A stretch of 64,000 nt of DNA from Chiloscyllium plagiosum (lineage: Eukaryota). A model generated the notes under the pieces. It was not told the origin of the DNA, did not search any database, and saw only the letters and a list, made by a program, of their open reading frames with translations. Positions 6,278 to 59,588 of the stretch are shown piece after piece. Position numbers and translations under genes: made by a program. Location of the stretch: positions 88,926,229 to 88,990,228 of the forward strand of contig NC_057718.1 of the NCBI RefSeq assembly GCF_004010195.1, in the 5' to 3' direction. Positions within the stretch are counted from its first letter, which is position 1. Every line of letters starts with the position of its first letter.

Positions 6278-6493
6278 CAGTGAGGGCTTCAGATGCTGAA
6301 GATCAGAGTGTGGTGCTGGAAAAGCACAGCAGGTCAGGCAGCATCCGAGGAGCAGGAGAATCGATATTTCGGGCATGAGTTCTTCATCGGGAATGAGCCT
6401 CATTCCTGAGGAAGGGTTTATTCCCGAAAAGTCGATTTTCCTGCTCTTCGGATGCTGCCTGACCTGCTGTGCTTTTCCAGTACCACACTCTTC
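6278..6493. mobile_element. Palindromic Penelope-derived element (family A) with degenerate hammerhead cores
   Basis: Inverted arms centred near 6397 (GGAATGAG/CTCATTCC); flanked by duplicated GAGATATGGGRACA. Confidence 0.8.
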
Positions 6494-7172
6494 GAGATAT
6501 GGGAACAGAGCAAGTAAATGTGTTTAGATTAGACTATTTGTTTGTGTGGAGGGTAAACACTGATATGGATTAATTGAGATGAATGCTTTGTAAATTTGGA
6601 AGAGTTTTGATGGAATATAAAGGGAGAAACTATTTGACAGGCAGGACAATTAGTAATCAGGGGACACATATTTATGATAATTGGCCACAGAACCTACATC
6701 AATATGCTGGCAATTTTCTCTATGTAATGTGTTGGTACAATCTGGAACATATTGCTGCAATTATCTTGCTTCTAGCCATGGTGCAAGCTTGGATTCTGAT
6801 CAGTTGAGGAGGATGATTGAGTCCCTTCTTTTTAAAACCCCTCTTGGTCAGCCATATTAAAAAAAAATTTGTTTCCCTTTTAGCATAGAGCTGTCACAGT
6901 TCATTAAACTTGGTTAACCAGATTTTGAAGAAGTGAAGGAGAGCCAATCCCAAGGTATATTTCAGTGAAAGGGAGTGGAGTTTTATTACCAATTAAACTT
7001 TGAGAACAATAAGTAAACGTGACATCAGACACAGACACAAACATAAGGTAATAACTCAAAAGTTAGGGGGGGGAACAGCACAGCAGACAGGATTGTACTA
7101 GCAGTTGCAGGTTGGAGACTTTTTATTGAGTCCTTCAGCTGGGTCCTAATGGTTGTCCTGTTCACTCAGAAG

Positions 7173-7289
7173 AAGGGCTTATGCCCGAAACGTCGATTCT
7201 CCTGCTCCTTGGATGCTGCCTGACCTGCTGCGCTTTTCCAGCAACACATTTTCAGCCTCTGATCTCCAGCATCTGCAGTCCTCACTTTC
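7173..7289 (+). mobile_element. Single-arm Penelope-derived element (family A)
   Basis: 17-bp TSD TCCTGTTCACTCAGAAG at 7156-7172 and 7290-7306; contains GGGCTTATGCCCGAAACGTC. Confidence 0.85.
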
Positions 7290-7778
7290 TCCTGTTCACT
7301 CAGAAGTCTTGAAGCTCACAGATAGCCTTGATTTCTCAGTGAACAATGGATTTTTCAAGCTGTTTTGGAACCAGCACTGACATTTGAGGTGTAGAGAGAG
7401 GCAAGAGAGACCATCTTGCCGTTGTTGCTCACAAAACCTTGTCTGTTCTGCTGCTCAGAAGCGGCTGTTAATCCCTGTCCATTTGAGATTTCCTGGGCCT
7501 CTGCTTCTAAGCCAAATAGTCCACTGTCAACCTTTCATATCAATGATTAACTTCCAAAAAAAAGTGTGAATCATTGGAAGATACAGATCTAAGTTTCAGT
7601 GTCTTTTATAACTATGTTCACTTTGGCTTAAACTGATCATGTTTTTTGTTGGGCTTCATGAACTTGACTCAACCTGGTCAGGTGATGTCTGCAGCCATTT
7701 TAGGTCACTACTTCGTCTTTATAATTTCATTTTTAGACCATTTGATATTAGAATCAGTTGAATATTGATAGTCCTTTT

Positions 7779-8310
7779 TTATGTCTGTAAAAGCAGTAAC
7801 ATTCAAAAGGGCATTGTGTGTATACTTGGAAAGGAAACACTTGCAGGACTTAAAAAAGCAGGGAAGGGGAACTAACTGGATAGCTCTTTCAAAGTGCTGG
7901 CAGCAGCACAAAGGGCCAAACAGCCTATCCTAGAGTCATAGAGATGTGCAGCATGGAAACAGACCGTTCGGTCCAACCCATCCACTCCCTCACTCTAAAC
8001 CTACACCCACTAGTTTTGGACTCCCCCACCCCAGGGAAATGACCTTGTCTATTTATCCTATCCATACTCCTCATGATTTTATAAACCTATCTATTTTATA
8101 AACCTATCAATTTTATACCCTATCGAAGTCACAGGTGCTCTGAGCACAGTGCCCGCCTGGAACAGACAGGGCTTGCCACTGTCTGTCCCTCAGTCTCCAA
8201 CACTCCAGGGAAAACAGCCCCAGCCTGTTCAGCCTCTCCTTATAGTTCAAACCCTCCAACCCTGGCAACATCCTTGTAAATCTTTTCTGAACGCTTTCAA
8301 GTTTCACAAA
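7779..8310 (+). repeat. Local duplication of ~4574-5208 (rearranged)
   Basis: 7779-7984 is nearly identical to 4574-4779 across a repeat-repeat junction; ~7988-8088 matches ~4994-5095. Confidence 0.85.
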
Positions 8311-13658: not shown

Positions 13659-13872
13659 CTCTGACTTGGAAGTGCCGGTGTTGGACTGGGGTGGACAAAG
13701 TTAAAAATCACACAGCACCAGGTTATAGTTCAACATGTTTATTCGGAAACACTAGCTTTTGGAGCACTGCTCCTTCATCAGGGCAATCACTTGATGAAGG
13801 AGCAGTGCTCTGAAAGCTAGTGCTTCCAAATAAACCTGTTGGACTATAACCTAGTGTGTGATTTTTAACTTG
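13659..13872. mobile_element. Palindromic hammerhead-bearing element (family B)
   Basis: Inverted arms centred near 13786; core TGATGAAGGAGCAGTGCTCTGAAAGCTA; TAAGGATA duplicated at 13651-13658 and 13873-13880. Confidence 0.8.
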
Positions 13873-14381: not shown

Positions 14382-14888
14382 GGGGCAGCATGGTGGCTCA
14401 GTGGTTAGCACTGCTGCCTCACAACAGCAGGGGCCCAGGTTTGATTCCAGCCTTGGGTGCCTGTCTGTGTGGAGTTTGCACATTCTCCCCGTGTCTGTGT
14501 GGGTTTCCTCCGGGTGCTCCGGTTTCCTCTCACAGTCCAAAGATGTGCAGGTCAGGTGAATTGGCTTTGCTGAATTGCTGAAAAATGTGTTGCTGGAAAA
14601 GTGCAGCAGGTCAGGCAGCATCCAAGGAGCAGGAGAATCGACATTTTGGGCATAAGCCCTTCTTCAGCTCTCCTGCTCCTTGGATGCTGCCTGACCTGCT
14701 GCGCTTTTCCAGCAACACATTTTTCAGTCTGATCTCCAGCATCTGCAGTCCTCACTTTCTCCCTATGCTGAATTGCCCGTAGTGTTAGGTGCATTAGTCA
14801 GAGGGGGGGGTGGGTTGCTCTTCGGAGGTTTGGTGTGGACTGGTTGGGCCGAAGGGCCTGTTTCCACACTGTAGGGAATCTAATCTAA
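14382..14888 (+). mobile_element. HE1-like SINE interrupted by a family A palindrome (14579-14765)
   Basis: tRNA head TGGCTCAGTGGTTAGC and TCTAA tail; the inner insertion is flanked by TSD TGCTGAATTGC (14568-14578, 14766-14776). Confidence 0.85.
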
Positions 14889-14954: not shown

Positions 14955-15154
14955 AATTAACAGTGACAACAGACGCCAGCGAGTGAATGATCACCTCTCC
15001 AGCACCAGCGAGCAAAGCAGCCCATCCGCAGGCACATTAGAATCCAGCAAGGAGACCCGATACTGTGCAGTGTGCAGTGATTACGCCTCAGGCTATCACT
15101 ATGGAGTCTGGTCATGTGAAGGCTGTAAAGCTTTTTTCAAGAGAAGCATTCAAG
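14955..15154 (+). CDS. esr1: Estrogen receptor alpha, internal coding exon (equivalent of coding exon 2: end of A/B domain + first C4 zinc finger with P-box)
   Basis: Pyrimidine tract + AG at 14953-14954 and GT donor at 15155. Translation (R)INSDNRRQ...[36 protein letters not shown](G). CEGCKA is the ER-type P-box; NSDNRRQ and KETRYC are ERalpha-like, not ERbeta-like. Phase 2 start and phase 1 end match the known ESR1 exon structure. Confidence 0.93.
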
Positions 15155-24019: not shown

Positions 24020-24234
24020 AAAGTGAGTATTGCAGATGCTGGAGAGTCAGAGTCGAAGAGTGTGGTGCTGGAAAAGCACAGCAGGTCAGGCAACATCCGA
24101 GGAGCAGGAGAGTCGACATTTCAGGCATAAACTCCTCATATTCCTGATGAAGGCCTGATGCCCGAAACGTCGACTTTCCTGCTCCTCGGATGCTGCCTGA
24201 CCTGCTGTGCTTTTCCGGCACCACACTCTTCAAT
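24020..24234. mobile_element. Palindromic Penelope-derived element (family A)
   Basis: 15-bp TSD TTTACACTTGTGGGA at 24005-24019 and 24235-24249; inverted arms. Confidence 0.85.
24140..24175 (+). ncRNA. Minimal hammerhead ribozyme motif
   Basis: CTGATGA-A-GGCCTGATGCCC-GAAA-CGTC; core intact, helix II imperfect. Confidence 0.55.
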
Positions 24235-24266
24235 TTTACACTTGTGGGATTTGAGCATTTTTAGCA

Positions 24267-24576
24267 GGGCGGCACAGTGGCTTAGTGGTTAGCACTGCTG
24301 CCGCTTCACAGCACCAGGGACCTGGGTTCGATTCTAGCCTTGGGTGATTGTCTGTGTGGAGTCTGTATGTTCTCCCTGTGTCTGCGTGGGTTGCCTCCGG
24401 GTGCTCCAGTTTCCTCCCACGATCCAAAGATGTGCAGGCCAGGTGGATTGCCCATAGTGTTAGTTGCATTAGTCAGAGGGAAATGGGTCTGGGTGGGTTA
24501 TTCTTCAGAGGGGCAGTGTGGATTTGTTGGGCCGAAGGGCCTGTTTCCACACTGTAGGGAATCGAATCTAATCTAA
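24267..24576 (+). mobile_element. HE1-like SINE
   Basis: tRNA A-box/B-box head (GGTTCGATTC) and TCTAA tail. Confidence 0.85.
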
Positions 24577-26817: not shown

Positions 26818-27677
26818 GATTGATTACCCAATGAAGAAATTCTGGCATATTGTTTGTCTAAAAAATATTAAATAAGAGCAAGTTAGGCTTGTTAGCAGGA
26901 CTTGTTCTTTTCCTCACTTGCTTTTGGGATCTGGGTGTTACTGGAAAGGTCAACATTTATTATCCATCCTTGATTTCCTTTCTCAACAGGGTGGTGGTAG
27001 GCTGCCTTCTTGAACTGGCACAGTCCCTCTGGCAAAGGTACTCTCACAGTATTGTTGAGTTATAGGGTATTAACCCGGCAACGATTCAGAAATGCCAATA
27101 AATTTCCAAATCAGGATGGTGACTTGACTGAGAACTTGCAAATGGAGATATTCCTTTGAGACTGTTGCCTTTCAACTTTTTTGACCATGGGTTCGGGAGA
27201 TGCCTTTGGAAACAACTTGGTGAGTTGCTGCAGTTGAGATTTGCTGTGCAGTCTCTACCCCAGTATCCAGGTGGATACATAAGTAGGGAGGGTTTCAAGG
27301 GATATGGGCCAAATGTCTGCAAATGGGACTAGATTAATGTAGGATATCTGGTCGGCATGGACAAGTAGAGTGAAGGTTCTATTTCTGTGCCGGACAATTT
27401 ATGACTCAATAACTCTATGACTTCAATTTTATTAAGCATTCTTGATGCCACATTTGGTCAAATTCTATCTTGGTGTTAAGGGCACTCAGTCTTATTTCTT
27501 TTGTACTTGTTGATCAAGGACTGTAATAAGGCCTGGAGCTGAGTCATTATGACAGAACAGAAACTAAGCATCATTGAGCTTAGTGCTGCCAGATTGCACT
27601 GTCGCTGACTGAGAGTAAACTGATTGGTTGGATTGATCTGTCCTGTTGATGTGATTTACCTGGGCACTTTTCCATAT

Positions 27678-27772
27678 TCCTGATGAAGGGCTTACGCCTG
27701 AAACATCGACTCTCCTGCTGCTCAGATACTGCCTGACCTGCTGTGCTTTTCCAATGCCACACTTTTTGACCC
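27678..27772 (+). mobile_element. Single-arm family A element with degenerate hammerhead core
   Basis: CTGATGAAGGGCTTACGCCTGAAACATC; flanked by duplicated TTTTCCAYATT. Confidence 0.7.
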
Positions 27773-28189
27773 CAGTTTTCCACATTGTCATGTGGATGCA
27801 TTAGGAGCAGGACGAGTCTGTTTGGGCTTTTAAGGCCTATTCTCCTATTTAACAAGATCACTACTGATGTTGGACAGATGCATATTCCCCTCTCCTCCCT
27901 TGTCAGCCTTCCACAAGGACCATTCCTTCCGGAACACCATGCCTAACTCCTCCTTCACTCCCAACACACTCTCCCTCCACAGCCACGTTTGCCAACCTCC
28001 AGTCTTCCGGCACTTTACCTGTGACTATCGATGATGCAAATATCTCAGCAAGGGGCCCAGCAATCACTTCCCTAGTGTCCCACAAAATTCTAGGGTTCAC
28101 CTGATCAGGTCCTGGGGATTTATGCATTTATGATTTAAGTGTGCAAAGAACACATTAACAGCACCTTAAAGGAGTGGAAATTAAAGCAA

Positions 28190-28682: not shown

Positions 28683-28964
28683 AAACGGTAAAATCAAGGA
28701 CTGCAGATTCTAGATTAGAGTGGTGCTAGAAAAGCACAGCAGTTCAGGCAGCATCCGAGGAGCAGGAAAATTGACATTTCAGGCAAAAGCCCTTCATGAG
28801 GAATAGAGGCAGAGTGCCTGCAGGGTGGAGAGATAAAAATCTCCACCCTGCAGGCACTCTGCCTCTATTCCTGATGAAGGGCTTTTGCCTGAAACGTCGA
28901 TTTTCCTGCCCCTCGGATGCTGCCTGAACTGCTGTGCTTTTCTAGCACCACTCTAATCTAGAAC
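28683..28964. mobile_element. Near-perfect ~260-bp palindrome, Penelope-derived (family A variant)
   Basis: Arms of ~125 bp centred near 28836; 16-bp TSD CTTCACTAGCTAGACA at 28667-28682 and 28965-28980. Confidence 0.9.
28867..28902 (+). ncRNA. Minimal hammerhead ribozyme motif
   Basis: ATTC-CTGATGA-A-GGGC-TTTT-GCCT-GAAA-CGTC-GATT: conserved core, helix II, palindromic ACGT helix III and a GUC cleavage triplet. Confidence 0.65.
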
Positions 28965-30927: not shown

Positions 30928-31056
30928 TCGAGAGTGTGGCTTATGCCTGAAACGTTGCGCCTCCTGCTCCTCAGATGCTGCCTGAGCTGCTGTGCTTTTC
31001 CAGCAGCACACTCTCGACTCTGATCTCCAGCATCTGCAGACCTCACTTTCTCCGAG
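30928..31056 (+). mobile_element. Family A element with very short inverted left arm
   Basis: TSD TTGACTCRCAGG at 30916-30927 and 31057-31068; GTCGAGAGTGTG is the inverse of the internal CACACTCTCGAC. Confidence 0.75.
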
Positions 31057-36050: not shown

Positions 36051-36218
36051 ATCTGAACCCACCTGAACTCAGATCAGTTAACATCAATTACTCAGATCCA
36101 GAACAGGATTCATCTTGTATATATTTTTTATAATCACGTGAGACAGATATATACATTATTGTATACAAAATTCTAATATATAATGAGGAGCAAAATTAAG
36201 AAAGTTTACAGAATATCC

Positions 36219-36713: not shown

Positions 36714-38580
36714 GGTGGGGGGAGGGGAAATGAGGAAACTGAAGAAATCTGAGTTCATCCCTTGTGGTTTGAGGGTTCCTAGGCGGAAGATGAGGCGCTA
36801 TTCCTCCAGCTGTCGTGTTGCTATGGTCTGGCAATGGAGGAGTCCAAGGACCTGCATGTCCTTGGTGGAGTGGGAGGGGGAGTTGAAGTGTTGAGCCACG
36901 GGGTGGTTGGGCTGGTTGGTCCAGGTGCCCCAGAGGTGTTCTCTGAAACGTTCCGCAAGCAGGCGGACTGACTCCTCAATATAGAGGAGGCCACATCGGG
37001 TGCAGCGGATGCAGTAAATGATGTGTGTGGAGGTGCAGGTGAATTTGTGGCGGATATGGAAGGATCCCTTGGGGCCTTGGAGGGAAGCAAGGGGGGAGGT
37101 GTGGGCGCAAGTTTTGCATTTCTTGNNNNNNNNNNNNNNNNNNNNNNNNNNNNNNNNNNNNNNNNNNNNNNNNNNNNNNNNNNNNNNNNNNNNNNNNNNN
37201 NNNNNNNNNNNNNNNNNNNNNNNNNNNNNNNNNNNNNNNNNNNNNNNNNNNNNNNNNNNNNNNNNNNNNNNNNNNNNNNNNNNNNNNNNNNNNNNNNNNN
37301 NNNNNNNNNNNNNNNNNNNNNNNNNNNNNNNNNNNNNNNNNNNNNNNNNNNNNNNNNNNNNNNNNNNNNNNNNNNNNNNNNNNNNNNNNNNNNNNNNNNN
37401 NNNNNNNNNNNNNNNNNNNNNNNNNNNNNNNNNNNNNNNNNNNNNNNNNNNNNNNNNNNNNNNNNNNNNNNNNNNNNNNNNNNNNNNNNNNNNNNNNNNN
37501 NNNNNNNNNNNNNNNNNNNNNNNNNNNNNNNNNNNNNNNNNNNNNNNNNNNNNNNNNNNNNNNNNNNNNNNNNNNNNNNNNNNNNNNNNNNNNNNNNNNN
37601 NNNNNNNNNNNNNNNNNNNNNNNNNNNNNNNNNNNNGGCCCATGCGGGTGCCCATGGCTATTCCTTTCGTTTGGAGGAAGTGGGAGGATTGGAAGGAGAA
37701 GTTGTTCAGGGTGAGGACCAGTTCAGTCAGTCGAAGGAGGGTGTCTGTGGAAGGGTACTGGTCGGTACGGCGGGAAAGAAAGAAGCGGAGGGCTTTGAGT
37801 CCTTCGTGATGGGGGATGGAGGTGTACAGGGACTGGATGTCCATGGTGAAGATAAGGCATTGGGGACCGGGGAAGCGAAAATCATGGAGGAGGTGGAGGG
37901 CGTGGGTGGTGTCCCGAACGTAAGTGGGAAGTTCTTGAACTAAGGGGGACAGGACCGTGTCGAGGTATGCGGAGATGAGTTCGGTGGGGCAGGAGCAGGC
38001 TGAGACAATGGGTCGGCCGGGGCAGTCAGGTTTGTAGATTTTGGGCAGGGGGTAGAAACGGGCGGTGCGGGATTGTGGGACTATGAGGTTGGAGGCGGTG
38101 GATGGGAGATCCCCTGAGGTGATGAAGTTATGGATGGTCTGGGAGATGATGGTTTGGTGGTGGGAGGTGGGGTCATGGTCAAGGGGCAGTAGGAGGAGGT
38201 GTCCACGAGCTGGCGTTTAGCCTCAGCGGTGTAAAGGTTGGTGCGCCAGACTACTACCGAGCTTCCCTTGTTTACCAGTTTGATAATGAGGTTGGGGTTG
38301 GAGCAGAGGGAGTGGAGGGCTACACGTTCCGAGGGTGAGAGGTTGGAGTGTGTGAGAGGGGTGGAGAGGTTGAGGCGGTTAATGTCGCGGCGGTAGTTGG
38401 CTGTGAAGAGATTGAGGGAAGGTAAGAGGCCAGCACGGGGTGACCAGGTGGATGAGGTGTGTTGGAGGCGGGAGAAGGGGTCGTCAGAGGGTGGACGAGA
38501 ATCCTGGTTGAAGAAGTAGGCGCGGAGGCGAAGGCGGCGGAAGAATTATTCGATGTCTCGCCGCGTGTTGAACTCGTTCG
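36714..38580 (-). mobile_element. Penelope-like retroelement (RT + GIY-YIG endonuclease), truncated and disrupted, spanning an assembly gap
   Basis: MDIQSLYTSIP...LTLNNFSF...GIAMGTRMG (PLE RT), then CKTC...FTCTSTHIIYCIRCTRCGLLYI...RFREH...VAQHF (Cys linker + GIY-YIG). Confidence 0.92.
37126..37636. other. Assembly gap
   Basis: Run of N. Confidence 1.
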
Positions 38581-39509: not shown

Positions 39510-39730
39510 TTCAAAGTTTGTGTGAAGATTTGTAGCTCGGGTGCTCGTTGCTGTGGTGCTGTTCGCCGAGCTGGGAATTTCTGGTGCAGACGCTTCGTCC
39601 CCTGTCTAGGTGACATCCTCAGTGCTCAGTTCACAGTTCACAGGAGGCTCCCAAGCACTGAGGATGTCACCTAGACAGGGGACGAAGCGTCTGCACAAGA
39701 AATTCCCAGCTCGGCGAACAGCACCACAAC
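39510..39730. mobile_element. Palindromic hammerhead-like element (family C) inserted in a CR1 fragment
   Basis: 13-bp TSD AGATAAATAGGTG at 39497-39509 and 39731-39743; inverted arms of ~75 bp; CTGAGGA-TGTCACCTAGACAGGGGAC-GAAG-CGTC. Confidence 0.85.
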
Positions 39731-40329
39731 AGATAAATAGGTGCTTGATTGATAAAGGGATCAAGGCTTACAGGGAGAAGGCAGGAGAATGGGGTTTGAG
39801 AAACATATCAGCCACGATCAAATGGCGGAGCAGACTTGATGGGCTGAATGGCCTAATCCTGCTCCATATCTTATGGTCTTAAGCTATCTGTTCATTTCAA
39901 ATGATTGACTCCTGAGGAGTATGCCCAGTACTTTATTATCTGTCATGTCAGCCATATTCTGTGAGAATTAGTTTCATTAGCTTGAAGATTGTTAATGGAG
40001 TTTTACAAAAGCTAGCTTCATTTTTACAGTCAAATTCAGGTTCAGTCGCATTTGGAAAGCCTTGAGAAGAAAGAACCAAGAGAAATGAAATTTTAAGGTG
40101 TATTGGACTGAGTATTTGTAAGCATATTTGGCTGTACAACTTTATGTGTTGCATGTGTAACTTTAAGATATTGAGTCCCTCAGTTGTTGCTAAGTAATTT
40201 CGGTTTACAAATCTGTAAAGTGCACCTGATGTTGCAAAACAGTGTGTGGTCGCTTGGTGATCTGCTAACCTAGTGTCACACAAGGTCAGGATCTGTAGAC
40301 TGGTGCATCCGATCAAATTATTGTCAATG

Positions 40330-40499
40330 GAGAGAAATCAGAGTTAACATTATCAGGTCCAGTGACCCTTCCTCAGAACTCCCTGAAACGTTAACTTTGA
40401 TTTCTCTTCACAGACGCTGTCAGATCTGCTGAGCTTTTCCAGCAATTTCTGTTTTTGTCTCTGATCGACAGTATCCTCAGTTCTTTCATGTTTTTATTG
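40330..40499. mobile_element. Partially palindromic element (family D), probably Penelope-derived
   Basis: GAGAAATCAGAGTTAAC and GTTAACTTTGATTTCTC are inverted; the minus strand has CTGAGGAAGGGTCACTGGACCTG; ATTRTCAATG is duplicated at the flanks. Confidence 0.6.
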
Positions 40500-42120: not shown

Positions 42121-43084
42121 TTTTTGAGGATAAGGGGTCTTGGAGAGTCGCAGTGTTAAAGTTATGCAATGAAGTCTGGTTTCTCAGATCACAGGATGTT
42201 TGCTTTCTGATTGGCCTTACAGGTTTGAAAGCTCCCTGCTGCCTTGAATTGGACTGTGAACCTGTCCCTATTTCAATTAAGGGGATGTCTTAACAAGTGA
42301 CTGTTTTCTCCCAGGAGTCCTTTTATGACTTGGAAACAGTCCAGGCTCCGGTTTTGCACTCCTGATCTGAAAATTCAGTCCCACTTCCTTTCCAGACGTG
42401 TGGACCGCCAATTGGAACTGATGTTGTAGTGGCCGATATACCTCCTGTTCAAATGTGGAAAGATTCAGAAGTAATTAGTACCCTCATGAAGGCTGACACC
42501 AGATTTCTCGAAACCTTCAAAAGCAGGCTGGATAGAGTAAAAGCTGTTCGTAAAAGGGTAAAGAACGCAAAGGTATAGGTTTAATGTGATGCGCAAACGA
42601 AGCAAGGGTGATGTGGGAAAAAAACATTTTTACACAGCGAATTGTTAGGATATGAAATACACTGCCTGGAAATGTTGTGAAGGCAAGTTCATTGAGGCAT
42701 TTATGAGGGCACTGGATGGTTATTTGGATAGAAAGAGTGTGCAGGGATAGGGGGAAAAGATAGGAGATTGGCACGAGGTAAGAGAACTGGTGCAGACATG
42801 TTGGTCCGAATTGCTTCTTTCTGCATGGTAGCCATTTTGTGATAGTCGCGTCTGAGAAATTGCAATGATAGGTGTGAACACGCCATTTTCTGGCACTGTT
42901 GTTTTTAAGTGTCAGTTCTTAATCTGAGTGAACATTTCCCAGCTGTATTCTTTTATCCTGTTCTACGACTCTCCAGAACAGCCTCAACAGATTGTCTGTT
43001 CTTCGTTTCTGTGGAAAGTTGAAAGATGGCATCAAGGGCTACCTTGATCATTAATTTCCCCCGTACATCAAAATCATCCATACA

Positions 43085-43178
43085 ACCACCTGATGAAGGA
43101 GCAGCGCTCCGATAGCTAGTGCTTCCAATTAAACCTGATGGACTATAACCTGGTGTTGTGTGATTTTTAACTTTGTAT
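43085..43178 (+). mobile_element. Single-arm family B element
   Basis: CCTGATGAAGGAGCAGCGCTCCGATAGCTAG (GAAA changed to GATA), followed by the same tail as 13800-13870. Confidence 0.75.
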
Positions 43179-43919
43179 ACCAAAAGAAGTGAGCCTCAGT
43201 CCTCAGGCATCACCACCCTGAAGGCTCTATGGAAACAATTGCACATTGACCACACTGGCCCAGCTGCCATCAAATAACAAGGGCAAAGAAATATCAAATG
43301 GTTATAGTTGGTTGGGTTGAAGCTATTCCCACTTTTCATTGTATTGCTTTAGCAACTGCAAAAGCACTCATTGAACAAGCTCATTTGAAGTGACATATGC
43401 CTCAGGATATAACCGGTGACAATTTACTTACAAAGAGATCCTGTAGACCCTATTCTGGAAACTAAGGTTAACTCAAATAAACGTCTGAACTAGGGGACTG
43501 AACAAACAGCAGGTTCAATGCCCGCGGCTCCTCAGAGGAGCTGTGAAAGAACTTGCAGAGATGCACACACATGAAGTTTTGCGTAAAGAAGTTTTGAGAT
43601 TAATCCTACCCTGTTCAATTCTTTTTTCTATGTATTTGCTTTTTAGTTTCGCAAATTAATGTGTATTGATTCTTATCATGCAGTTCTAAAAGAAATGAGC
43701 CTTGATTTTGCTAAATTCAATTTGGGAAGACATTAAGATTATACAGATTAAGGTATTTGAGATAGAAACAGGCTGTTCCTCCAACAAATCCTTGCTCCAC
43801 CTGCACTGCCTCCTACATTTTCTCATCAAAACTTACTGTGTCAATTATCTCGTCCCTTCTCTCTCAAATTGTCTGGCTTCTTCTTAAATGCATTCATACT
43901 GTTTGCTTCCATGACTCTT

Positions 43920-47584: not shown

Positions 47585-48430
47585 CAGACAGACCTCAAAC
47601 CAAAGCGAGGGTAGAATTGGCAATGGCTGTCAAGGTGTGTGTGACCTTGAATATTCATGTGCTGGGCTCCTTCCAGGTTGAAACAGGCAATATTTATAAC
47701 ATGCTACAAACACAAGAGCTCGAAAGGGCAGGCGAATATATTTTTATTCCCGGGAGGAGGTGGGTGGATCTTCGGCAGGACCGCAGATCTCCCCAAGGTG
47801 CCACAGAATTGTTGCTTCAGGCCAAAGTCCCTCAACATCCACCTGGTGTGCGAATGGACACAGTGAGTCAGTCAAGTCAAAGTGAGGACTGCAGATGCTG
47901 GAGATTAGAGTCAAGGTTAGAGTGGTGCTGGAAAAGCACAGCAGGTCAGGCAGCATCCGAGGAGCAGGAAAATTGACGTTTCGGGGCAGGAGCCCTCTGA
48001 TCATTCCTGATGAAGAGCTTCTGCTCCCCGGATGCTGCCTGACCTGCTGTACCTTTCCAGCACCACTCTAATCTTGATAGTGAGTCAGTCAGCCCAGGGT
48101 ACTGTGTCTTGGCAATACTTATGATCATTTCCTTCTCTACCTACACTGGAGGATAGCCATGATGTGAAGGAGCAGGTGTTTGACTGGTTACACTCAAAGC
48201 ATCATAACAAAGTAAATGGTGAGTTCAGAACGAGAGTCATACTGCAACCTGAAACCTTGACCCTTTTTCTCTCTCTGCACAGATGCTGTTGTTGAGTTTC
48301 TCTGGAGCTCACTGTTTGTTTATTGACGCAGTGAGTGCCATTGACTGGCAAGAGCCATTCACTGAGCATTTACCTCAGGAACCCAGCAACCCAATCATGG
48401 ACAACATGCTGCCACACCCAGTGTGATGGG
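47585..48430 (+). mobile_element. Second decayed Harbinger/HARBI1-like transposase, interrupted by later insertions
   Basis: Motifs in order across frames: LAMAVKVCVTLNIHVLGSFQVETGNI, RAGEYIFIP, FGRTADLPKV, SLNIHLVCE, LGNTYDHFLL, GKSHSL...LRNPAT, QHAATPSV. These correspond to Harbinger motifs ALxFYxxGSFQ, YIxFP, FxxxAGFPxV, SxNVQLVCD, PGSxHD, GDxGYP, HxxTR. Confidence 0.7.
47875..48078. mobile_element. Palindromic family A element
   Basis: 13-bp TSD AGTGAGTCAGTCA at 47862-47874 and 48079-48091. Confidence 0.85.
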
Positions 48431-50015: not shown

Positions 50016-51757
50016 CACCTGCCCAGCTCTGTATACAGACAACCCCCCCCCGACTGGTGACATATACAGCCAGCACCTGCCCGACTGGTGACTGTCTACC
50101 TGCCCAGCTCTGTATACAGCCAGCCCCCCTGACCAGTGACAGTCCACCTGCCCAGGTCTGTATACAGCCAGCCCCCCCGACTGGTGACTGTCTACCTGTT
50201 CAACTCTATATACAGCCAGCACCTGCCCGACTGGTGACTGTCTACCTGCCCAGCTCTGTATACAGCCAGCCCCCCTGACCAGTGACAGTCCACCTGCCCA
50301 GGTCTGTATACAGCCAGCCCCCCCGACTGGTGACTGTCTACCTGTTCAACTCTATATACAGCCAGCACCTGCCCGACTGGTGACTGTCTACCTGCCCAGC
50401 TCTGTATACAGCCAGCCCCCCTGACCAGTGACAGTCCACCTGCCCAGGTCTGTATACAGCCAGCCCCCCCGACTGGTGACTGTCTACCTGTTCAACTCTA
50501 TATACAGCCAGCACCTGCCCGACTGGTGACTGTCTACCTGCCCAGCTCTGTATACAGCCAGCCCCCCTGACCAGTGACAGTCCACCTGCCCAGGTCTGTA
50601 TACAGCCAGCCCCCCCGACTGGTGACTGTCTACCTGTTCAACTCTATATACAGCCAGCACCTGCCCGACTGGTGACTGTCTACCTGCCCAGCTCTGTATA
50701 CAGCCAGCCCCCCTGACCAGTGACAGTCCACCTGCCCAGGTCTGTATACAGCCAGCCCCCCCGACTGGTGACTGTCTACCTGTTCAACTCTATATACAGC
50801 CAGCACCTGCCCGACTGGTGACTGTCTACCTGCCCAGCTCTGTATACAGCCAGCCCCCCTGACCAGTGACAGTCCACCTGCCCAGGTCTGTATACAGCCA
50901 GCCCCCCCGACTGGTGACTGTCTACCTGTTCAACTCTATATACAGCCAGCACCTGCCCGACTGGTGACTGTCTACCTGCCCAGCTCTGTATACAGCCAGC
51001 CCCCCTGACCAGTGACAGTCCACCTGCCCAGGTCTGTATACAGCCAGCCCCCCCGACTGGTGACTGTCTACCTGTTCAACTCTATATACAGCCAGCACCT
51101 GCCCGACTGGTGACTGTCTACCTGCCCAGCTCTGTATACAGCCAGCCCCCCTGACCAGTGACAGTCCACCTGCCCAGGTCTGTATACAGCCAGCCCCCCC
51201 GACTGGTGACTGTCTACCTGTTCAACTCTATATACAGCCAGCACCTGCCCGACTGGTGACTGTCTACCTGCCCAGCTCTGTATACAGCCAGCCCCCCTGA
51301 CCAGTGACAGTCCACCTGCCCAGGTCTGTATACAGCCAGCCCCCCCGACTGGTGACTGTCTACCTGTTCAACTCTATATACAGCCAGCACCTGCCCGACT
51401 GGTGACTGTCTACCTGCCCAGCTCTGTATACAGCCAGCCCCCCTGACCAGTGACAGTCCACCTGCCCAGGTCTGTATACAGCCAGCCCCCCCGACTGGTG
51501 ACTGTCTACCTGTTCAACTCTATATACAGCCAGCACCTGCCCGACTGGTGACTGTCTACCTGCCCAGCTCTGTATACAGCCAGCCCCCCTGACCAGTGAC
51601 AGTCCACCTGCCCAGGTCTGTATACAGCCAGCCCCCCCGACTGGTGACTGTCTACCTGTTCAACTCTATATACAGCCAGCACCTGCCCGACTGGTGACTG
51701 CCCACCTGCCCAGCTCTGTATACAGCCAGCCCCTCTGACTGGTGACTGTCTACCTGC
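50016..51757. repeat. Higher-order tandem repeat: 146-bp unit (50+48+48-bp related monomers) x 11, plus degenerate edges
   Basis: Unit starts at 50067, 50651, 50797, 51381 and 51673 fit a 146-bp period; monomers share CAGCCAGC...GTGAC...ACCTG...TATA. Confidence 0.95.
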
Positions 51758-52272: not shown

Positions 52273-53518
52273 TCCTTCATCTGGAATGCCTGATGAAGAA
52301 CTTTGCTTGAAACATCGACTCTCCTGCTCCTCGGATGCTGCCTGATCGGCTGTGCTTTTCCAACACCGCACATTTGGACTCTGATCTCCAGTATCTGCAG
52401 TCCTCACTTTCTTCCAGTTGTTTTTAAGACAAGCCTGTGTGATGGGCCAAAGGTGCTATGATACTCAATTAAAAAAACAGTACCCTGTATTGAAGAGTGA
52501 ATCCTATTAGATGTTTTAGCACAAAACTGACTGGCCCGGCAGCGCCAAAATCAAATACAAGCCTACATGAAACCTTGGTGGCAATGAAGTTGTTAAACTA
52601 GGTGTACAGTCATTGTTCTATTGCTGCCTGGGGCTGAGAGATAAACCTCTGTTTGTTACTTTGGTTTCGCTTCAGAGGCCAGAGACCTCAAGCCCGGTGT
52701 GAATGTGACAGGACTGGGCTCCTCCAGTACCCAGTCCTGTCCCTGATGCCTATGATCCAGGGACTGGCACCACATGAGGTAAGTATAAACACCAATGATT
52801 GCATTGGTGAGTTCAACTAATCCCCATCAACCTTCAGCCTGATTTGCGGCAGGAACCTGGAATTTGGGAATAATTGGCAGAGGTGCACCCTAATGCAGAA
52901 GTAGGGGGAGGAATTAATAAAGGTGCAAGGCAAGTAACCAACATGGCAAAACCAAATTTGACAGAGCTAAAATTATTGAACGTAACATTGAGCCCAGAAA
53001 GCTGTGGCTGAAGGGTGGGAAGCAGGCAGTGAGCTGTCTGATATAACTGTTGTGCATTTTCAGAGGTGTTTTTTTAATTGATCCATAGCGATAACCTTTG
53101 GTTGCCAACGCTGCCAACATATCATGGGCAGATTTGTCGCCATCAATTCCTCTTATTGCTGACGGTTGCTTTACTGTCACCAAGTGGGGAAGGATTCCCA
53201 GGAGACGGATTCCACAGAAGCAGTAAAGGTTTATTAAAACATTACCTAACAGCTCGCTACATTATATCTAAGATACACGATTGTCACTTCTGAGACATCA
53301 GGCTTAATTTTGAGTAAGTACTCTGGCTACATGCTGTTACCACAGGGAACAATCACAGAATCAGTTCTTAGGACACACTGCAGAGCTCTGGTTAGCACAT
53401 GGCAAATGCACTATGACTCTGGTTAACTCATTTCAGGAACAGTCTTTTATAAGTGTTTTCTAACCTGTGCCGAAATGTTAATGCACACCTCTGGAGCAGA
53501 TGGGACTTGAACCTAAGC

Positions 53519-53702
53519 AGTTGTTGAAAAATGTGATGCTGAAAAAACACAGCAGGCCAGGCAGCATCCGAGGAGCAGGAGAATCGACGTTTCGGGCATA
53601 AGCCCTTCTCCTGCTCTTCGGGTGCTGTCTGGCCTGCTGTGTTTTTCCAGCATCACATTTTTCAACTCTGGTCTCCAGCATCTGCAGTCCTCACTTTCTC
53701 CT
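53519..53702. mobile_element. Palindromic family A element
   Basis: 14-bp TSD ACTTGAACCTAAGC at 53505-53518 and 53703-53716. Confidence 0.85.
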
Positions 53703-54265: not shown

Positions 54266-55039
54266 ATCCTATTTGTTTGATTTCTGAAATAATGTACTAA
54301 TATTTGACATTATATCAGTTGCTGATATAATGGCAATAAAATCAAAAAATACTGGAACTACTCAGCAGGTCTGGCAGCACCCGTGGAGAGAGAAAGGGTT
54401 AAGGTTTCGAGTCGGCAAACTAGCAACTGGGAAAACTTAAACATCATCGATCTTGAACATGCGAAAGGGATGGATGAGAAGAACAAAATGAAGATCTGCA
54501 GTAAGGTGGTAAGATTTCACCTTCAAATGGTTGGTCAATGTTGAGTCCAGAAGAGAGAGAGAGAGTCCAATTGAAAGATGAGGAGCTGTTGAGTTTAATT
54601 GGAACAGTCAGCAGGCCAAGGATAGAGAGGTCAGAGAAGGAGCAGGGTAAGGAAGTGTAGTGACAGGTGACCTGTTGCTCAGGGTCAGACTTGCGGAGGG
54701 TGAATGTCATGTCCATGATGGGTCTTCCCAGTGGAGGAGGAGGCAACATGGTGAACAGTGAATATAATAAACAAGATTAAACTTGCAAGGAGCATTTAGG
54801 GTTTGGGCAGCGAGAAAGGAGGTAAACAGTCATGTCTATCAGCGCACGCAGAACTTTCTGTTTTTATTTCAGATTTCAAGCATCAACAGATTTTGATTCT
54901 GTATTAACAAGAGCAATGACTGACTGTTTCACATTATCAATGTAATGATATCAACATGATTCTGTGGTTTTTGAATTGATCTGATTTCAGATGTAATACT
55001 ATCAATGGGATTGATGACTGAGATATTAATACTAATAGT

Positions 55040-55331: not shown

Positions 55332-55459
55332 ATTGACTGGTTGCATTAGATAGGTTCTATAATGATAGCAATGTCTAAATGATTGTGTACAATTTCTCAT
55401 GGGTTGTCAGCTGTGATTCAAGGCGTAACATTCTTCTGTTCAGTTCAGAAGTGTTTTGA

Positions 55460-56640
55460 TCAAGACTGACACTCCAGGGCAGTACAGAGGGAGTGCTGCA
55501 CTTCAAAGGTGTTAGCTTTTCATGAATAAGAAAACCCCATCTTCTATCGCAAATACAATTTCAAAGTAGAACAGGAAAGTTATTTATGGTCTCTCTATCC
55601 CTCAATGGACATCACCAATAATATTATCTGGTTATTATCACATTGCTGTTTGTGGGAGCTTGCTGTGTGCAAACTGGTGAATGAGTGATACCAATTCGTA
55701 TCTCTGTCTCATTGCCTATGTGATAATACTAATTGCCTCGAGGACTTGAGCACAAAAATCAAAAGGGACACTTTAGTGCAGGATTGAGGGAGTGCTGCAC
55801 TGCCATCGGTGACAGCTTTTGAAAGAGACATCAAAATGAGGTCTCATCTGCCTTCTCAAGTGGACATGGAAGATCCCACAGCTGTATTTTGAAGAAGTGC
55901 GGGGGAGGTCTTTCCAGAGGCCTGCCGAACATTTCTCTCTCAATTGTCATCACAAACCAGCCAATGAAGGAGCAGCGCTCTGAAAACTAGTGCTTCCAAT
56001 TAAACCTGTTGGACTATAACCTGATGTTATGAGATTTTTAAACTTTGTACACCCCAGTCCAACACTGGCATCTCCGAATCATAACAGATCATCTGGCCTT
56101 TATCACATTGTTGTCTTTGCGTGATGGTTGTGTGTAGACATTTGGCTGCTAGGTTTCCTATGTTACAATAGAAATGAAATTAAGAATTAATTTTTGGTAT
56201 GACCTGTGGTCATGAAAGGTGCTGTATAAATGCACGTTTTTGCTTTGAGGGAGAAACCAAGTCATCCATGCTTGAGTTGATAATATATTCACGACAAGGC
56301 TCCACATTCAAGGACTGACATTGCGATGCAGTAAGGAGGGAGTGCTACACTCTCAGAGGTACTTATGTTTGTACAAGGCATCAAACTGAAACCCCAACTG
56401 CTTTCCTAGGTTGTTGTAAAAGACCACATGGCACTGTTCGGAAGACAAGATGTGAGTCAAACCTTGAGGTTGTGGCTAGCATTTATCCTTCAATCACTGT
56501 TGAAGCACATAGGTGGTATAGCCCTAATCACATTGCTGTTTGTGTGCGTTTACTCAGGACTAATTGACTGCTGCACTTATATTACAACAACATCTGTGAG
56601 ATATCTCATGGTGGGGAAAAACGCTACATAAATGCATTTT
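55460..56640 (+). mobile_element. Three co-oriented decayed Deu-domain SINE (SacSINE1-like) copies, one containing a family B arm (~55960-56080)
   Basis: GACAC...GCAGTA...GAGGGAGTGCTRCACT at ~55468, ~55768 and ~56317 resembles the Deu core. Confidence 0.6.
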
Positions 56641-56907
56641 TTTTAACAAAACCATAAGAAAATGTTACATTGCTGATACAAGATAGCTACATCCAAAATG
56701 ATTATTTCCTAAAGCCGATGCAATCACACTCTGTGCTCATGGAGTGATACCAAGGAATACCTGATGTGGTCTGATTATTGATCCCAACATCTGAATGAAT
56801 CGGATTTCTGACCTAATGATTCCATTTGATTTATTGTTGTCACATGTACCTAGGTACAGGGAAAAGTTTTGTTTTGCATGCACTACAGGCAGACTATACA
56901 AAGTGCA

Positions 56908-57591
56908 GGTAAAAACAATGACTGCAGATGCTGGAAACCAGAGTTTAGATTAGAGTGGTGCTGGAAAAGCACAGCAGTTCAGACAGCATCCAAGGAGCAG
57001 TAAAATCGACGTTTCGGACAAAAGCCCTTCAGCAGGAATACAGGCAGAGAGCCTGAAGGGTGGAGAGATAAATGAGAGGAGGGTGGGGGTGAGGAGAAAG
57101 TAGCATAGAGTACAATAGGTGAGTGGGGGAGGGGATGAAGGTGATAGGTCAGGGAGGAGGGTGGAGTGGATAGGTGGAAAAGAAGATAGGCAGGTAGGAC
57201 AAGTCATGGGGACAGTGCTGAGCTGGAAGTTTGGAACTAGGGTGAGGTGGGGGAAGGGGAANNNNNNNNNNNNNNNNNNNNNNNNNNNNNNNNNNNNNNN
57301 NNNNNNNNNNNNNNNNNNNNNNNNNNNNNNNNNNNNNNNNNNNNNNNNNNNNNNNNNNNNNNNNNNNNNNNNNNNNNNNNNNNNNNNNNNNNNNNNNNNN
57401 NNNNNNNNNNNNNNNNNNNNNNNNNNNNNNNNNNNNNNNNNNNNNNNNNNNNNNNNNNNNNNNNNNNNNNNNNNNNNNNNNNNNNNNNNNNNNNNNNNNN
57501 NNNNNNNNNNNNNNNNNNNNNNNNNNNNNNNNNNNNNNNNNNNNNNNNNNNTGCTGCCTGAACTGCTGTGCTTTTCCAGCACCACTCTAAT
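56908..57591. mobile_element. Penelope-like terminal repeat + 3' UTR with an inverted arm, spanning a gap
   Basis: 14-bp TSD CTATACAAAGTGCA at 56894-56907 and 57592-57605. The sequence just before the gap (GGTGGGGGAAGGGGAA) matches the left end of the PLE at 36714. Confidence 0.85.
57262..57551. other. Assembly gap
   Basis: Run of N. Confidence 1.
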
Positions 57592-58225
57592 CTATACAAA
57601 GTGCATTAGGGTATTAGAACAGAGCGAGGAATACAATATTACAGCTGCAGAGACGGTGCACAGAGAGCGAGATCAACCTTAAATCGAAAAATTGAGGGGT
57701 CACTTCAGAAGTCTAAAACCAGCAGGGAAGAAGCTGTTCTTGAATCTATTCATACATGTGTGTTAACTTCTTTATCTTCTGCGCGACAGAAGATTGTGGA
57801 AGAGAGTGTAACTGGGGTGGAAGGGGGTCTTTGATTAGGTTGGTGAGATATCAAAAGTGGCAATGTTTAACAATGAATCTCCTTCTTGATTTAATAGTAC
57901 TGATGATTAATATGCCATGTTTTTTGCTGTCATGTGGTTGATGTGATGCCAAGGCTAGCCTGTTTTTGTTCAATGAACTTGTACCAATGTGACAGGTGAT
58001 TGCCAAAATCATTTTGTCAGGTGTCTTGCTTGCTTCCTAAAATGCAAAACACCCAACTTAGTGTTTTAAGCAAGGTCTGCCAATACTGTTACCTTAATTC
58101 AGTCATGGGATGTGGGCGTCACTGCTGGGCCAGCATTTATCATTTAGCTGCCTTTGTAAAGGTGGTGGTGAGCTGCCTTCTCAATCTAGTACCATGTGCT
58201 GTAGGTAGACTCACAATGCTTTTTT

Positions 58226-58537
58226 TAGATTAGACTCCCTACAGTGTGGAAACAGGCCCTTCAGCCCAACAAGTCCACACCGACCCACCGAAGAGTAACC
58301 CACCCAGACTCATTTCCCTCTGACTAATGTACCTAACACTATGGGCAATTTAGCATGGCCAGTTCACCTAACCTGCGTATCCTTGGACTGTGGGAGGAAA
58401 CCAGAGCACCCGGAGGAAACCCACGCAGATGCAGGGAGAATGTGCAAACTGCACACAGACAGTCGCCCGAGGCTGGAGTCGAACCTGGGGCCTTGGTGCT
58501 GTGAGACAGCAATGATAACCATTGAGCCACCGTGCTG
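58226..58537 (-). mobile_element. HE1-like SINE nested in a LINE fragment
   Basis: SINE body; the flanking LINE sequence (from 58100) resumes after 58538. Confidence 0.8.
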
Positions 58538-59084
58538 TTAAGGAAGGAGTTCCAGGATTTTGACCCAGTGATTCTGAAGGAGTGGTGATGTATTTCCAGG
58601 TCAGTACATTGAACGGCTTGGAGGGGAACTTGCCTGTTCCCAAGTATCTGTTGTGCTTGTCCTGTTAGATGGTAGTGGCCATGTGTTTGGAAGGCAGTTT
58701 GGAGGATGGCAATGTGGCAGTCTTCAAAATCAAGTACGCCGGCAATAGAAATCCTGCCCAGCAAGAACTGCCAGGCAATCAGGGACTGGCAACGCTCGCA
58801 ATCGGCAATGCCACCACCAAAAAGGTTGAGAACACCCAACATCATAAGGGCCAAGGACTCAGGTAAGTGCTTTTGGTGGGGGCTGTGAGGTTTCTGGGGC
58901 TAGCATGAGATGGGGTAAAGGGTCGCAGAAACCTGCTGTTTGGCCAGTCCACTGATTGTGCACAAATTAGTGCAGATTCAGGGGTGACCCCAAACCCAAC
59001 TGAAAGCCAGTCTACCCTAGTTTTGCCAGGCAGTTTGGTCAACTCTTGTCCATTTGCCTAAAGCTGGCATAATTACAGCCACGG

Positions 59085-59588
59085 CGAAAGTGGGTCCTGC
59101 AGATGCTGGAGATTTGAGTCAAGATTAGAGCTGTGCTGGAAAAGCACAGCAGGTCAGGCAGCATCCAAGGAGCAGGAAAATAGACGTTTTGGGCAAAGGC
59201 CCTACATCAGGAATGAGTCTGGACCTGCAGTGGAGAGTATCGTTGACCACGTCTGGGGAGAAATTGCAGTCTTTGAAGAAGGAGGCCATCTGGGTTGTTC
59301 AGTATTGGAACTGGTCCTCCTGGGAGCAGATGTGGCGGAGATGAAGGAATTGGGTATATGGGATGGCGTTTTTACAGGGGGCAGGGTGGGAGGAGGTGTA
59401 GTCTAGGTAGCAGTGGGAGTCCTACCTTTTATCTTAGCCTGCTTGGCACACCTTCCTCATTCCTGAAGAAGGGGCTCATGCCCGAAACGTCAATTCTCCT
59501 TCTCCTTGGATGCTGCCTGACCTGCTGCGCTTTTCCAGCAACACATTTTCAGCTCAGATCTCCAGCATCTGCAGACCTCACTTTCTCC
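59085..59588. mobile_element. Composite Penelope-like remnant: two inverted terminal arms around an RT fragment
   Basis: Minus translation of ~59420-59230 is DSHCYLDYTSSHPAPCKNAIPYTQFLHLRHICSQEDQF (PLE RT C-terminal region); the right arm has CTGAAGAAGGGGCTCATGCCCGAAACGTC. Confidence 0.8.

Follow-up and report, generated by a model that had tools for sequence, protein, structure and literature searches.

Minimal hammerhead ribozymes are carried by the pseudo-long terminal repeats (pLTRs) of metazoan Penelope-like elements (PLEs), where solo copies and pairs on opposite strands have been described (Cervera and De la Pena 2014, PMC4209133). An inverted truncated copy with a tail on one side only has likewise been published for PLEs (PMC8557442, PMC3846280). 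For Poseidon of Anolis carolinensis, reverse transcription was reported to start at two internal sites and both target strands to be cut and extended, with a ribozyme that needs protein and is dispensable for insertion in vitro (Frangieh et al. 2024, PMC11167929). We analyzed a window of 64,000 nucleotides from the shark Chiloscyllium plagiosum, together with further samples of its genome, in which inserts of four such families (A to D) are found. We consider it very probable that these inserts are heavily 5'-truncated and mostly decayed pLTRs of autonomous PLEs with the known minimal hammerhead, and that each inverted pair was likely built anew at insertion rather than copied ready-made.

The shark motifs agree with the published minimal hammerheads in the extra base before helix II, the G10.1-C11.1 pair, the palindromic 15-16 segment and the short helix I, as well as in the presence of several families per genome, mostly solo with some opposite-strand pairs, as in the pLTRs of fish PLEs (PMC4209133). 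Helix II, however, has 4 bp in shark family A and 7-8 bp in the Schistosoma motifs of that article, in which we found no shark named and whose supplementary alignments could include shark motifs. As in described EN+ PLE insertions (PMC3846280, PMC8557442), including Penelope of D. virilis (PMC2377424), the ends lie head-to-head with a tail at one end and target-site duplications (TSDs), and a 5' repeat in partial tandem runs into the body. Most shark inserts, unlike those, consist of the terminal 100-140 nt only and have a sharp 5' border at the ribozyme, and their TSDs measure 13-16 bp, compared with 8-10 bp in the rotifer. Poseidon likewise has two 3' ends that lie downstream of the ribozyme and are separated by about 35 nt, and copies that keep an uncleaved motif; palindrome formation is not addressed in the available account of it (PMC11167929). 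Animal non-LTR retrozymes (preprint 10.64898/2026.07.22.740005; PMC7229834) share the type I hammerhead, the origin from PLE pLTRs and the presence in a chondrichthyan. Retrozymes are, however, tandem direct arrays, whereas the shark copies are solos or inverted pairs, so that two ribozymes of the same sense do not lie side by side.

The motif, its place in PLE ends, the inverted layout and the tail are already published, while a literature search that lay mostly outside subscription journals returned no direct study of shark PLE hammerheads or of intronic hammerhead orientation. The significance for ribozymes and host regulation is small, and the useful part is mechanistic: a very large set of short insertions, regular at their 3' ends, sharply bordered on the 5' side and flanked by TSDs of 13-16 bp, bears on the inverted ends and one-sided tails of PLEs, and can be compared directly with the in vitro PLE system.

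Inserts in the esr1 introns

As a first-pass annotation had placed them, the inserts lie within the esr1 transcription unit. The window lies within introns 1 and 2 on the + strand, with the A/B exon about 7 kb upstream and the next exon about 43 kb beyond the window end. As no esr1 coding exon was found in the window other than the first zinc-finger exon (14955..15154, + strand; 97% identity to Heterodontus ESR1 over 71 aa, AG/GT ends), all elements are intronic. Each of the 17 coordinates listed in that annotation indeed holds a copy of family A, B, C or D, and an eighteenth element, a D-like solo remnant at 54352..54414 (- strand), was absent from its list. Eleven of the 17 are head-to-head pairs, nine of which are flanked by TSDs of 12-16 bp, as are two solos (7173 and 30928); for reference, a TSD of at least 10 bp arose in 5 of 300 random placements.

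Most of these copies are damaged. Among the family A pairs, both motifs are damaged at 6281..6493 (tail on the - arm, 15-bp TSD), the + arm starts past the cleavage site and the - arm has a changed G12 at 14579..14762 (14-bp TSD), the + arm keeps its core with a broken helix II at 24020..24234 (15-bp TSD), neither arm has the whole motif at 47875..48076 (15-bp TSD; the arm at 48021 was miscalled owing to an internal deletion), and the - arm lacks CUGA while the + arm starts past the cleavage site at 53519..53702 (14-bp TSD). The pair at 28683..28964 has a 16-bp TSD and is predicted to form a single long hairpin. A longer inverted family A insertion at 56908..57591 (14-bp TSD) includes 3' UTR sequence and an N gap, with A6 changed on the - arm. 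At 59083..59591, two tailed family A ends that belong to different subfamilies enclose a PLE piece, and no TSD was found; this stretch had been read as a single element (59085-59588) and probably represents two separate events. The family B pair at 13659..13868 (12-bp TSD) has C3 changed on the + arm and G12 on the - arm, in the family C pair at 39510..39728 (15-bp TSD) GAAG replaces GAAA on both arms, and the family D pair at 40328..40458 has two incomplete motifs and no TSD was found for it.

The remaining solos are all on the + strand. The tailed family A copy at 7173..7296 has a 5' end that cuts into the CUGA core, the tail-less one at 27672..27781 has a core and a broken palindrome, the tailed one at 30928..31056 (12-bp TSD) starts within helix II and thus lacks CUGAnGA, and the tailed one at 52286..52421 has a broken helix II and palindrome. 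For family B, GATA replaces GAAA at 43082..43181, and the core is broken in the tailed copy at 55955..56082.

The population had been called dense and mostly palindromic. At 28.5 elements per 100 kb, the window falls within the range of eight other intron blocks (21-34), with 19.6 per 100 kb in 20 arbitrary stretches, and its count is ordinary (18 seen, about 16 expected; 1.81 Mb sampled). The esr1 gene is not special for these inserts, and their density is like that in other introns. The palindromic majority holds in the window (11/18) and fails in the whole sample (173/466); a very short inverted arm is hidden in some of the "solos". Extrapolation from 20-26 per 100 kb gives a genome-wide total of about 700,000-900,000 insertions.

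Minimal hammerheads and their parent elements

In 1.264 Mb, our descriptor of the motif matched 108 times, compared with 1, 6 and 2 matches in three Markov shuffles, and the strict motif 65 times, compared with none. More than a dozen window copies had been credited with the full pattern, CTGAnGA-hairpin-GAAA-NNTH, yet only four of those listed keep it (6406, 27680, 28871 and 59463); of these, only that at 28871 retains the palindrome and helix I, with the conserved C11.1 changed to U. In the other listed copies, the core is absent or the core or helices are changed. Accordingly, none of the 18 window elements is a complete metazoan minimal hammerhead and one nearly is: the motif at 28871..28898 (+ strand) has the core, a 4-bp helix II, ACGU and GUC at 28896-28898, the last base being where the first-pass annotation had put it, while G10.1 is paired with U and not C. 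In the fold predicted for 28860-28965, moreover, core and cleavage region are paired with each other. A copy at another locus (L095, core at 6010) is canonical.

The family majority sequences, which were built from arms picked by homology rather than by structure, are, judged by their letters, textbook minimal hammerheads. The helix II covariation expected across families is present in them as compensatory changes, with GGGC/GCCC in A, GGAGC/GCUCC in B1, GGGUC/GACCC in D and GUC/GAC in C1. The palindrome is ACGU or AGCU, the family D majority having ACAU at the CpG, and helix I has 2-5 bp whose pairs differ by family. The proposal that the inserts are PLE derivatives with minimal hammerheads is thus borne out, and the 4-nt palindrome fits the published dimer model. 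With E values up to 1 allowed, an Rfam scan matched no hammerhead family, and its 15 matches were to hairpin-type families below gathering scores; we do not count this against hammerheads because the minimal motifs are without helix III.

A genomic footprint of cleavage was considered and dropped. An early bump of ends in TSD-verified family A arms (9/93 between +28 and +37, with none between +21 and +27) flattened with more data and better pairing (15/144 compared with 5/129 just upstream), and all arms together gave no robust excess (21/308 compared with 9/287 upstream). A pile-up of ends at the cleavage site was also absent from RNA reads of a single-cell poly(A) library, which is poorly suited to this purpose.

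The ends of families A, B and C are joined to RT-endonuclease ORFs. A search for the family A RT gave 39,913 first-look candidates genome-wide. One family A locus (L029) has RT (RVT_1, E 1.5e-6) and GIY-YIG (E 2.7e-4) in the same frame, both scores being slightly below the Pfam cut-offs, and its ORF has the DKG motif. Of 19 other RT loci, 10 have the family A motif on the downstream side of the ORF and in the same sense, and at 7 of 24 other loci a sense repeat runs into the element body, so that the terminal repeat stands at both ends of the body, as a pLTR in partial tandem. In the window itself, an autonomous PLE ORF fragment of family A's parent type (36757..38570, - strand) holds RT and then the GIY-YIG region, with a 511-base N gap, and its own terminal repeat is missing. 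Upstream of the B and C ends lie RT and endonuclease pieces that belong to the respective family. Unlike in Poseidon, RT and endonuclease are connected in A and B by a CX4CxxC linker, which is of the Neptune/Nematis type; no CX2-5CxxC linker was seen ahead of the family C endonuclease, and only C looks Penelope/Poseidon-like. The search for upstream RT or endonuclease linked no ORF to family D, which also has no definable tail. Four of 25 family D solos share upstream flank.

Formation of the inverted pairs

Exactly one arm bears the tail in 96 of 102 family A pairs, 33 of 38 in B and 6 of 13 in C, so that an inverted 5'-truncated copy is combined with a 30-40 bp tail at one end, as in EN+ PLEs. 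The 3' ends occupy two alternative positions, separated by about 35 nt, and point outward in pairs. TSDs of at least 10 bp flank 87 of 142 tight pairs, with a mode of 15, while 257 of 293 solos lack them, which we count against extending our explanation to solos. The arms diverge by a median of 6.9% within pairs, compared with 17.2% between pairs, and belong to the same subfamily in 36 of 47 cases (one arm uncalled in 8, discordant in 3).

The 5' ends also cluster. It should be noted that arm ends were taken from local alignments, with an error of up to several bases, and that five descriptor matches judged unrelated, one unshared seed, arms below 40 bits and arms whose start lay over 45 nt beyond the cleavage site (103 of 533 at an earlier stage, mostly SINE or LINE flank matches) were left out before counting. 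Among family A arms that reach the first base of the core, 116 of 196 stop within the next 10 nt, with a peak at -4, equally with a tail (50/85) and without (66/111). The same pile-up is seen in TSD-verified pairs (54/82) and in family B (43/87). Family C has none at the ribozyme border (3/48), so the stop is not general, and for D such statistics cannot be used, as the seeds lacked sequence upstream. Seven terminal repeats continue directly into the element body, and four of them start between -3 and +6. Contrary to prediction, the short arm of long inverted copies does not regularly end at -4.

The transcription initiator has the consensus YYANWYY, and an initiator-like match with its A at -4 is present in A and D and not in B. 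Position -4 is a listed loose end in one RNA run and a recurrent contig joint in another. About 2% of one run (X19) was read, from the poorly suited single-cell library, and no site was found where many molecules begin or end; its reads are on both strands, with a depth of several hundred over the terminal repeat and of about 10 over the body of the element. This pattern fits passenger transcription and has no bearing on start site or cleavage. A splice acceptor at -4, like that of D. virilis, was rejected, as the position is not preceded by AG.

From end positions only, the pile-up just upstream of the core suggests run-off at the 5' end of the RNA. In the mechanism that we propose, the RT-endonuclease would nick both target strands about 13-16 nt apart, and a cDNA would be primed from each nick, one per internal start site (twin priming, again from end positions). 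Both cDNAs would break off close to where the ribozyme ends on its 5' side, most likely because the RNA has its start at that point, and short stretches of microhomology would then link them. The RNA on which the ribozyme acts would be that of the element itself, with the active form either a dimer or a complex with the PLE protein. More specifically, though we hold this tentatively and regard it as doubtful, the RNA of shark Neptune-type PLEs may start at the initiator-like A four bases before the core, and a dimeric RT-endonuclease may prime both nicks within the 5' pLTR, one subunit per start site, possibly on two RNAs held by the ACGU/AGCU palindrome, and run off that end. If so, PLE integration would be recorded at base level in several hundred thousand stumps, and the minimal hammerhead would have a second role as an RNA dimerisation signal.

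Two alternatives compete with single steps only. The first, to which we give appreciable but less than even weight, replaces run-off by a stall of RT at the folded or protein-bound ribozyme, or by an endonuclease cut of the intermediate at ATT. The stop rate does rise steadily across the ribozyme before the peak, 5'-ATT-3' is the preferred target of the Anolis endonuclease (PMC11167929) and an ATT is present at -4 in family A, and in D. virilis the start site is described as lying upstream, with an intron ending at helix I (PMC2377424, PMC4209133). Nonetheless, the peak lies past the entire fold and not at its 3' foot, B has the peak without ATT, near-full-length copies begin at the same place, and the initiator-like sequence of A and D, though not of B, favors an RNA start.

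The second, which we consider unlikely, replaces twin priming by self-priming, in which a single cDNA would fold back on itself and serve as the primer for its own copying, possibly with an antisense template, as was proposed for rotifer PLEs (PMC3846280). It would account for the microhomology at junctions and for the subfamily marks shared by the arms of a pair, sometimes down to a rare change (both arms at 39510). If the tailed arm is made first, however, the tail-less arm cannot reach further 5' than it does, whereas the tailed arm stops more than 5 nt earlier in 34 of 82 pairs (the reverse in 22, within 5 nt in 26); later central deletions could explain some of the 34.

It is very improbable that the palindromes are copied whole as independent units, either non-autonomous mini-retroelements or retrozyme-like RNAs. 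Their high copy number, TSDs and narrow size would fit such units, as would a few recurrent junctions (one at three loci), the reported ability of solo pLTRs to act in cis (PMC3846280) and the failure to find a parent for D. The idea is largely refuted by junction diversity: 84 of 86 family A tight-pair junctions differ, so a MITE-like unit with a shared center is not seen. Moreover, long copies with ORFs have matching ends, sizes form a gradation up to 4.8 kb, and the window has no tandem direct repeats with complete hammerheads in consecutive units, although arrays define non-LTR retrozymes (preprint 10.64898/2026.07.22.740005). Of the earlier wording, "non-autonomous or truncated PLE derivatives", truncation therefore stands and non-autonomous families do not, given these junctions and the RT-endonuclease ORFs of A, B and C.

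Ribozymes in host pre-mRNA

Copies in the esr1 pre-mRNA are predicted to be inert passengers. The first-pass annotation had instead suggested that the inverted arm could be a built-in off switch, and had named orientation bias as the test. On this idea, selection would keep the arm for preventing cleavage of host pre-mRNA by the ribozyme. RNA of 28683-28964 is predicted to fold into a long hairpin that buries the motif (-249.5 kcal/mol), and weak trends in orientation go the expected way for all solos (123 sense, 146 antisense; p 0.18) and for family C solos (6 and 15; p 0.08). Intact motifs, however, number 49 sense and 40 antisense in 1.62 Mb of intron from the five genes sampled, with no difference between solos (22 and 18; 95% interval 0.38-0.71) and inverted copies (27 and 22; Fisher p 1.0), nor between unprotected (27 and 23) and protected ones (22 and 17). 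Core damage is not significantly higher in sense (intact 30/62 compared with 35/61, p 0.37). As the SINE and LINE controls were also unbiased (98:104 and 73:59), the test is without a positive control, which should be considered when referring to these ratios. With intact motifs at 49:40 regardless of an inverted arm, the off switch is unsupported, and we regard it as hardly credible. From this null result, minimal hammerheads would seem largely harmless to host pre-mRNA. Single minimal hammerheads are, moreover, described as not cleaving in vitro (PMC4209133), the Anolis hammerhead as needing its protein (PMC11167929), and 250 kb of esr1 carries seven near-intact sense copies, at least 11 kb apart.

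Hammerhead-bearing inserts in the esr1 introns

The window is part of a 3.56-Gb genome and contains the first zinc-finger exon of esr1 (estrogen receptor 1) at 14955-15154. Over 71 aa, this exon shares 97% identity with ESR1 of Heterodontus, and the host is therefore a shark or closely related to sharks. Since the same contig carries the remaining esr1 coding exons, also on the + strand, at C9:88918996-89205352 (a coding span of 286 kb), the whole window corresponds to introns 1 and 2, and the inserts are thus located within the esr1 transcription unit, as the first-pass annotation had stated. Every copy that it had assigned to the four repeat families (A-D) was found to be present. By homology, 18 elements were annotated in the window, and 11 of these are head-to-head pairs of family copies (arms). 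Target-site duplications (TSDs) flank nine pairs, with lengths of 12-16 bp, and two solos (single arms).

Our comparison sample comprised an extra 200 kb of esr1, 1.4 Mb in four CUB-domain genes (three resembling CSMD and one resembling cubilin, as judged from exon pattern; presumed intronic in these parts) and 20 arbitrary 10-kb stretches. In the 1.81 Mb sampled, 639 arms in 466 elements were counted. Per 100 kb, the window contains 28.5 elements, the remaining intron blocks 21-34 and the arbitrary stretches 19.6. With 18 elements seen where about 16 were expected, the dense population claimed for esr1 is of ordinary density. The feature is real and of a known kind but ordinary at this locus. 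In G000:C16:64446510-65809727, on another contig of this genome, six similar CUB-domain exons lie on the + strand, 160-350 kb apart.

The hammerhead descriptor matched 108 times in 1.264 Mb, as compared to 1-6 times in shuffled sequence, and its strict form matched 65 times, with no matches in shuffles. Majority sequences were built from arms chosen by homology. Those of the A, B and C groups are minimal hammerheads with ACGU or AGCU at positions 15-16, while that of family D is one but for a single CpG. Helix covariation was confirmed, with helices I and II carrying differing yet paired letters between the family majority sequences. The pattern attributed to more than a dozen copies fits the family majority sequences, but only four window copies keep it and, judged by sequence, the window copies are mostly dead. 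The suggested search with Rfam hammerhead models gave no match at E up to 1. The sole window copy retaining pattern, palindrome and helix I (28871-28898) has G10.1 facing U, and its monomer is predicted to misfold, with the core pairing with the cleavage region. In the family C pair at 39510-39728, both arms carry GAAG in place of GAAA; either the source RNA was inserted despite a damaged core, or the change passed from one arm to its partner by conversion. A match to the downstream part of a family D element (40427-40499) lies at 16765-16833 and is probably another remnant of that family.

The window also contains a broken LINE (33408-36068, - strand) with endonuclease (PF03372, PF14529) and reverse transcriptase (RT; PF00078) domains, which is CR1/L2-like by its motifs, about 15 copies of a tRNA-like SINE of ~300 bp (e.g. 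24265-24576), and a self-similar tract of 1.7 kb (50016-51757), probably a tandem repeat.

Parent elements

An RT and GIY-YIG ORF fragment lies at 36757-38570 on the - strand. First-look candidates for its RT number 39,913 genome-wide, a count of candidates and not of copies. Because the family A motif follows this RT in sense orientation at 10 of 19 other loci, because at one locus (L029) a single frame spans RT, CX4CxxC linker and GIY-YIG, and because at 7 of 24 other loci, walked to the 5' end, the sense family A repeat passes directly into the element body, family A is the pseudo-LTR (terminal repeat) of an autonomous Penelope-like element (PLE) of the Neptune/Nematis type, of which such a linker is typical (PMC8557442, in part). 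An RT, a CX4CxxC linker and an endonuclease distinct from those of A belong to family B. RT and endonuclease are likewise present in family C, whose RT is presumably Penelope/Poseidon-like, judging by its motifs. Family D resembles family A downstream of the motif, and no ORF linked to it was found. The inserts had been described as truncated or non-autonomous PLE derivatives; for families A-C, PLE origin and truncation hold but non-autonomy is unsupported, A being the end of an autonomous element and B and C being linked to enzymes of their own.

Families A-C share the tested features of EN+ PLEs with minimal hammerheads. Non-LTR retrozymes, in contrast, are defined by tandem units, which these inserts do not form; the same preprint reports retrozymes in one chondrichthyan and mild intron avoidance in Xenopus (10.64898/2026.07.22.740005, in part). 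In a literature search of incomplete coverage, no study of hammerheads from shark PLEs turned up.

In long family B copies (e.g. the esr1 downstream block near locus L049), the 3' UTR contains a long CA-rich, microsatellite-like tract between ORF and ribozyme. Three loci (L019, L021 and L022) share one composite layout, with the family A RT broken at the identical point and the family B end equally distant. L021 and L022 then add a family A end, in L022 (e.g. 2160-3180) after an inverted endonuclease piece. This layout may reflect amplification of a composite subfamily, or else faulty assembly.

Orientation and the proposed off switch

The antisense arm had been proposed to silence the ribozyme in pre-mRNA, and 28683-28964 is predicted to fold as one stem. 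The idea called for an orientation or palindrome bias, and none was found across five genes, where SINE and LINE controls were equally unbiased (98 to 104 for the tRNA-like SINE in sampled introns). Strictly intact motifs numbered 49 sense and 40 antisense, with similar ratios for intact solos (22 and 18; sense share 95% interval 0.38-0.71), inverted arms (27 and 22; Fisher p 1.0 against solos) and copies whose core is uncovered by the partner (27 and 23). Core damage did not differ significantly by orientation. An off switch kept by selection is unsupported. All solos lean antisense (123 sense, 146 antisense; p 0.18), as do family C solos (6 and 15; p 0.08), and a mild orientation effect on copies may exist. 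According to published work, such a switch is also unnecessary: a minimal motif from Schistosoma showed no cleavage as a single copy and weak cleavage as a dimer (PMC4209133, in part), and an Anolis motif cleaved only with the element's protein (PMC11167929, in part). As the motifs of a head-to-head pair lie on opposite strands, the pair supplies no second ribozyme to the same transcript.

How the insertions end

The analysis leaves one testable lead, namely how PLE insertions end. Measured from the cleavage site, 3' ends cluster at two positions ~35 nt apart: near +65 and +100 in A, +57 and +95 in B, and +40 and +78 in C. The longer end is confined to one of the two arms in 96 of 102 pairs of family A and in 33 of 38 of family B. 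This longer end is the known PLE tail, as described in parts of PMC3846280 and PMC8557442. Published work attributes the tail to a pair of internal sites at which RT starts, and the enzyme, a predicted dimer, cuts and extends both target strands (PMC11167929, in part). TSD lengths are centred on 15 bp, junction microhomology is frequent, junctions are nearly all distinct (84 of 86), and both arms of a pair come from one subfamily. We infer that cDNA would be primed from both target nicks, with one start site per nick, which fits tails, TSDs, junctions, subfamily match and arm lengths. Fold-back of a single tailed cDNA seems unlikely, as it requires the tailed arm to be the one extending further 5', a rule broken by 34 of 82 pairs. 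Copying of a master palindrome as a whole unit is very improbable, since it predicts shared junctions.

At the other end, arms stop at an increasing rate across the ribozyme, with the maximum in the 10 nt preceding C3, the first base of the core, and a mode at -4. Of 196 A arms reaching the core start, 116 stop within this stretch. The share is equal with and without tail and, therefore, template position rather than length sets the stop. The same border is seen in TSD-verified pairs and in family B, while family C has none. Only 2 of 33 A solos stopping there share upstream flank, and an artefact of missing upstream reference was accordingly rejected. Of the seven A repeats leading into an element body, four begin at -3 to +6, and public runs show a roughly fivefold rise in depth at the border, with -4 appearing as both loose end and joint. 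Position -4 of families A and D is an A lying within an initiator-like sequence (consensus YYANWYY). PLE transcription begins inside the pseudo-LTR (PMC2377424, in part), and rotifer pseudo-LTRs have been described as containing initiator-like motifs (PMC3846280, in part). RT primed in the 5' repeat would run off the 5' end of the RNA, and such run-off is the simplest reading of the border, although RT stalling or endonuclease cutting at ATT may set it instead. A ribozyme-cleavage footprint was discarded, as the apparent excess of insertion ends at the cleavage site vanished with more data. Counted from the A at -4, the family A ACGT palindrome lies at +28 to +31, and its region (e.g. 28892-28899) bears a loose likeness, in 5 of 8 letters and possibly by chance, to RGACGTGY, the downstream promoter element reported for D. 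virilis Penelope (PMC2377424, in part).
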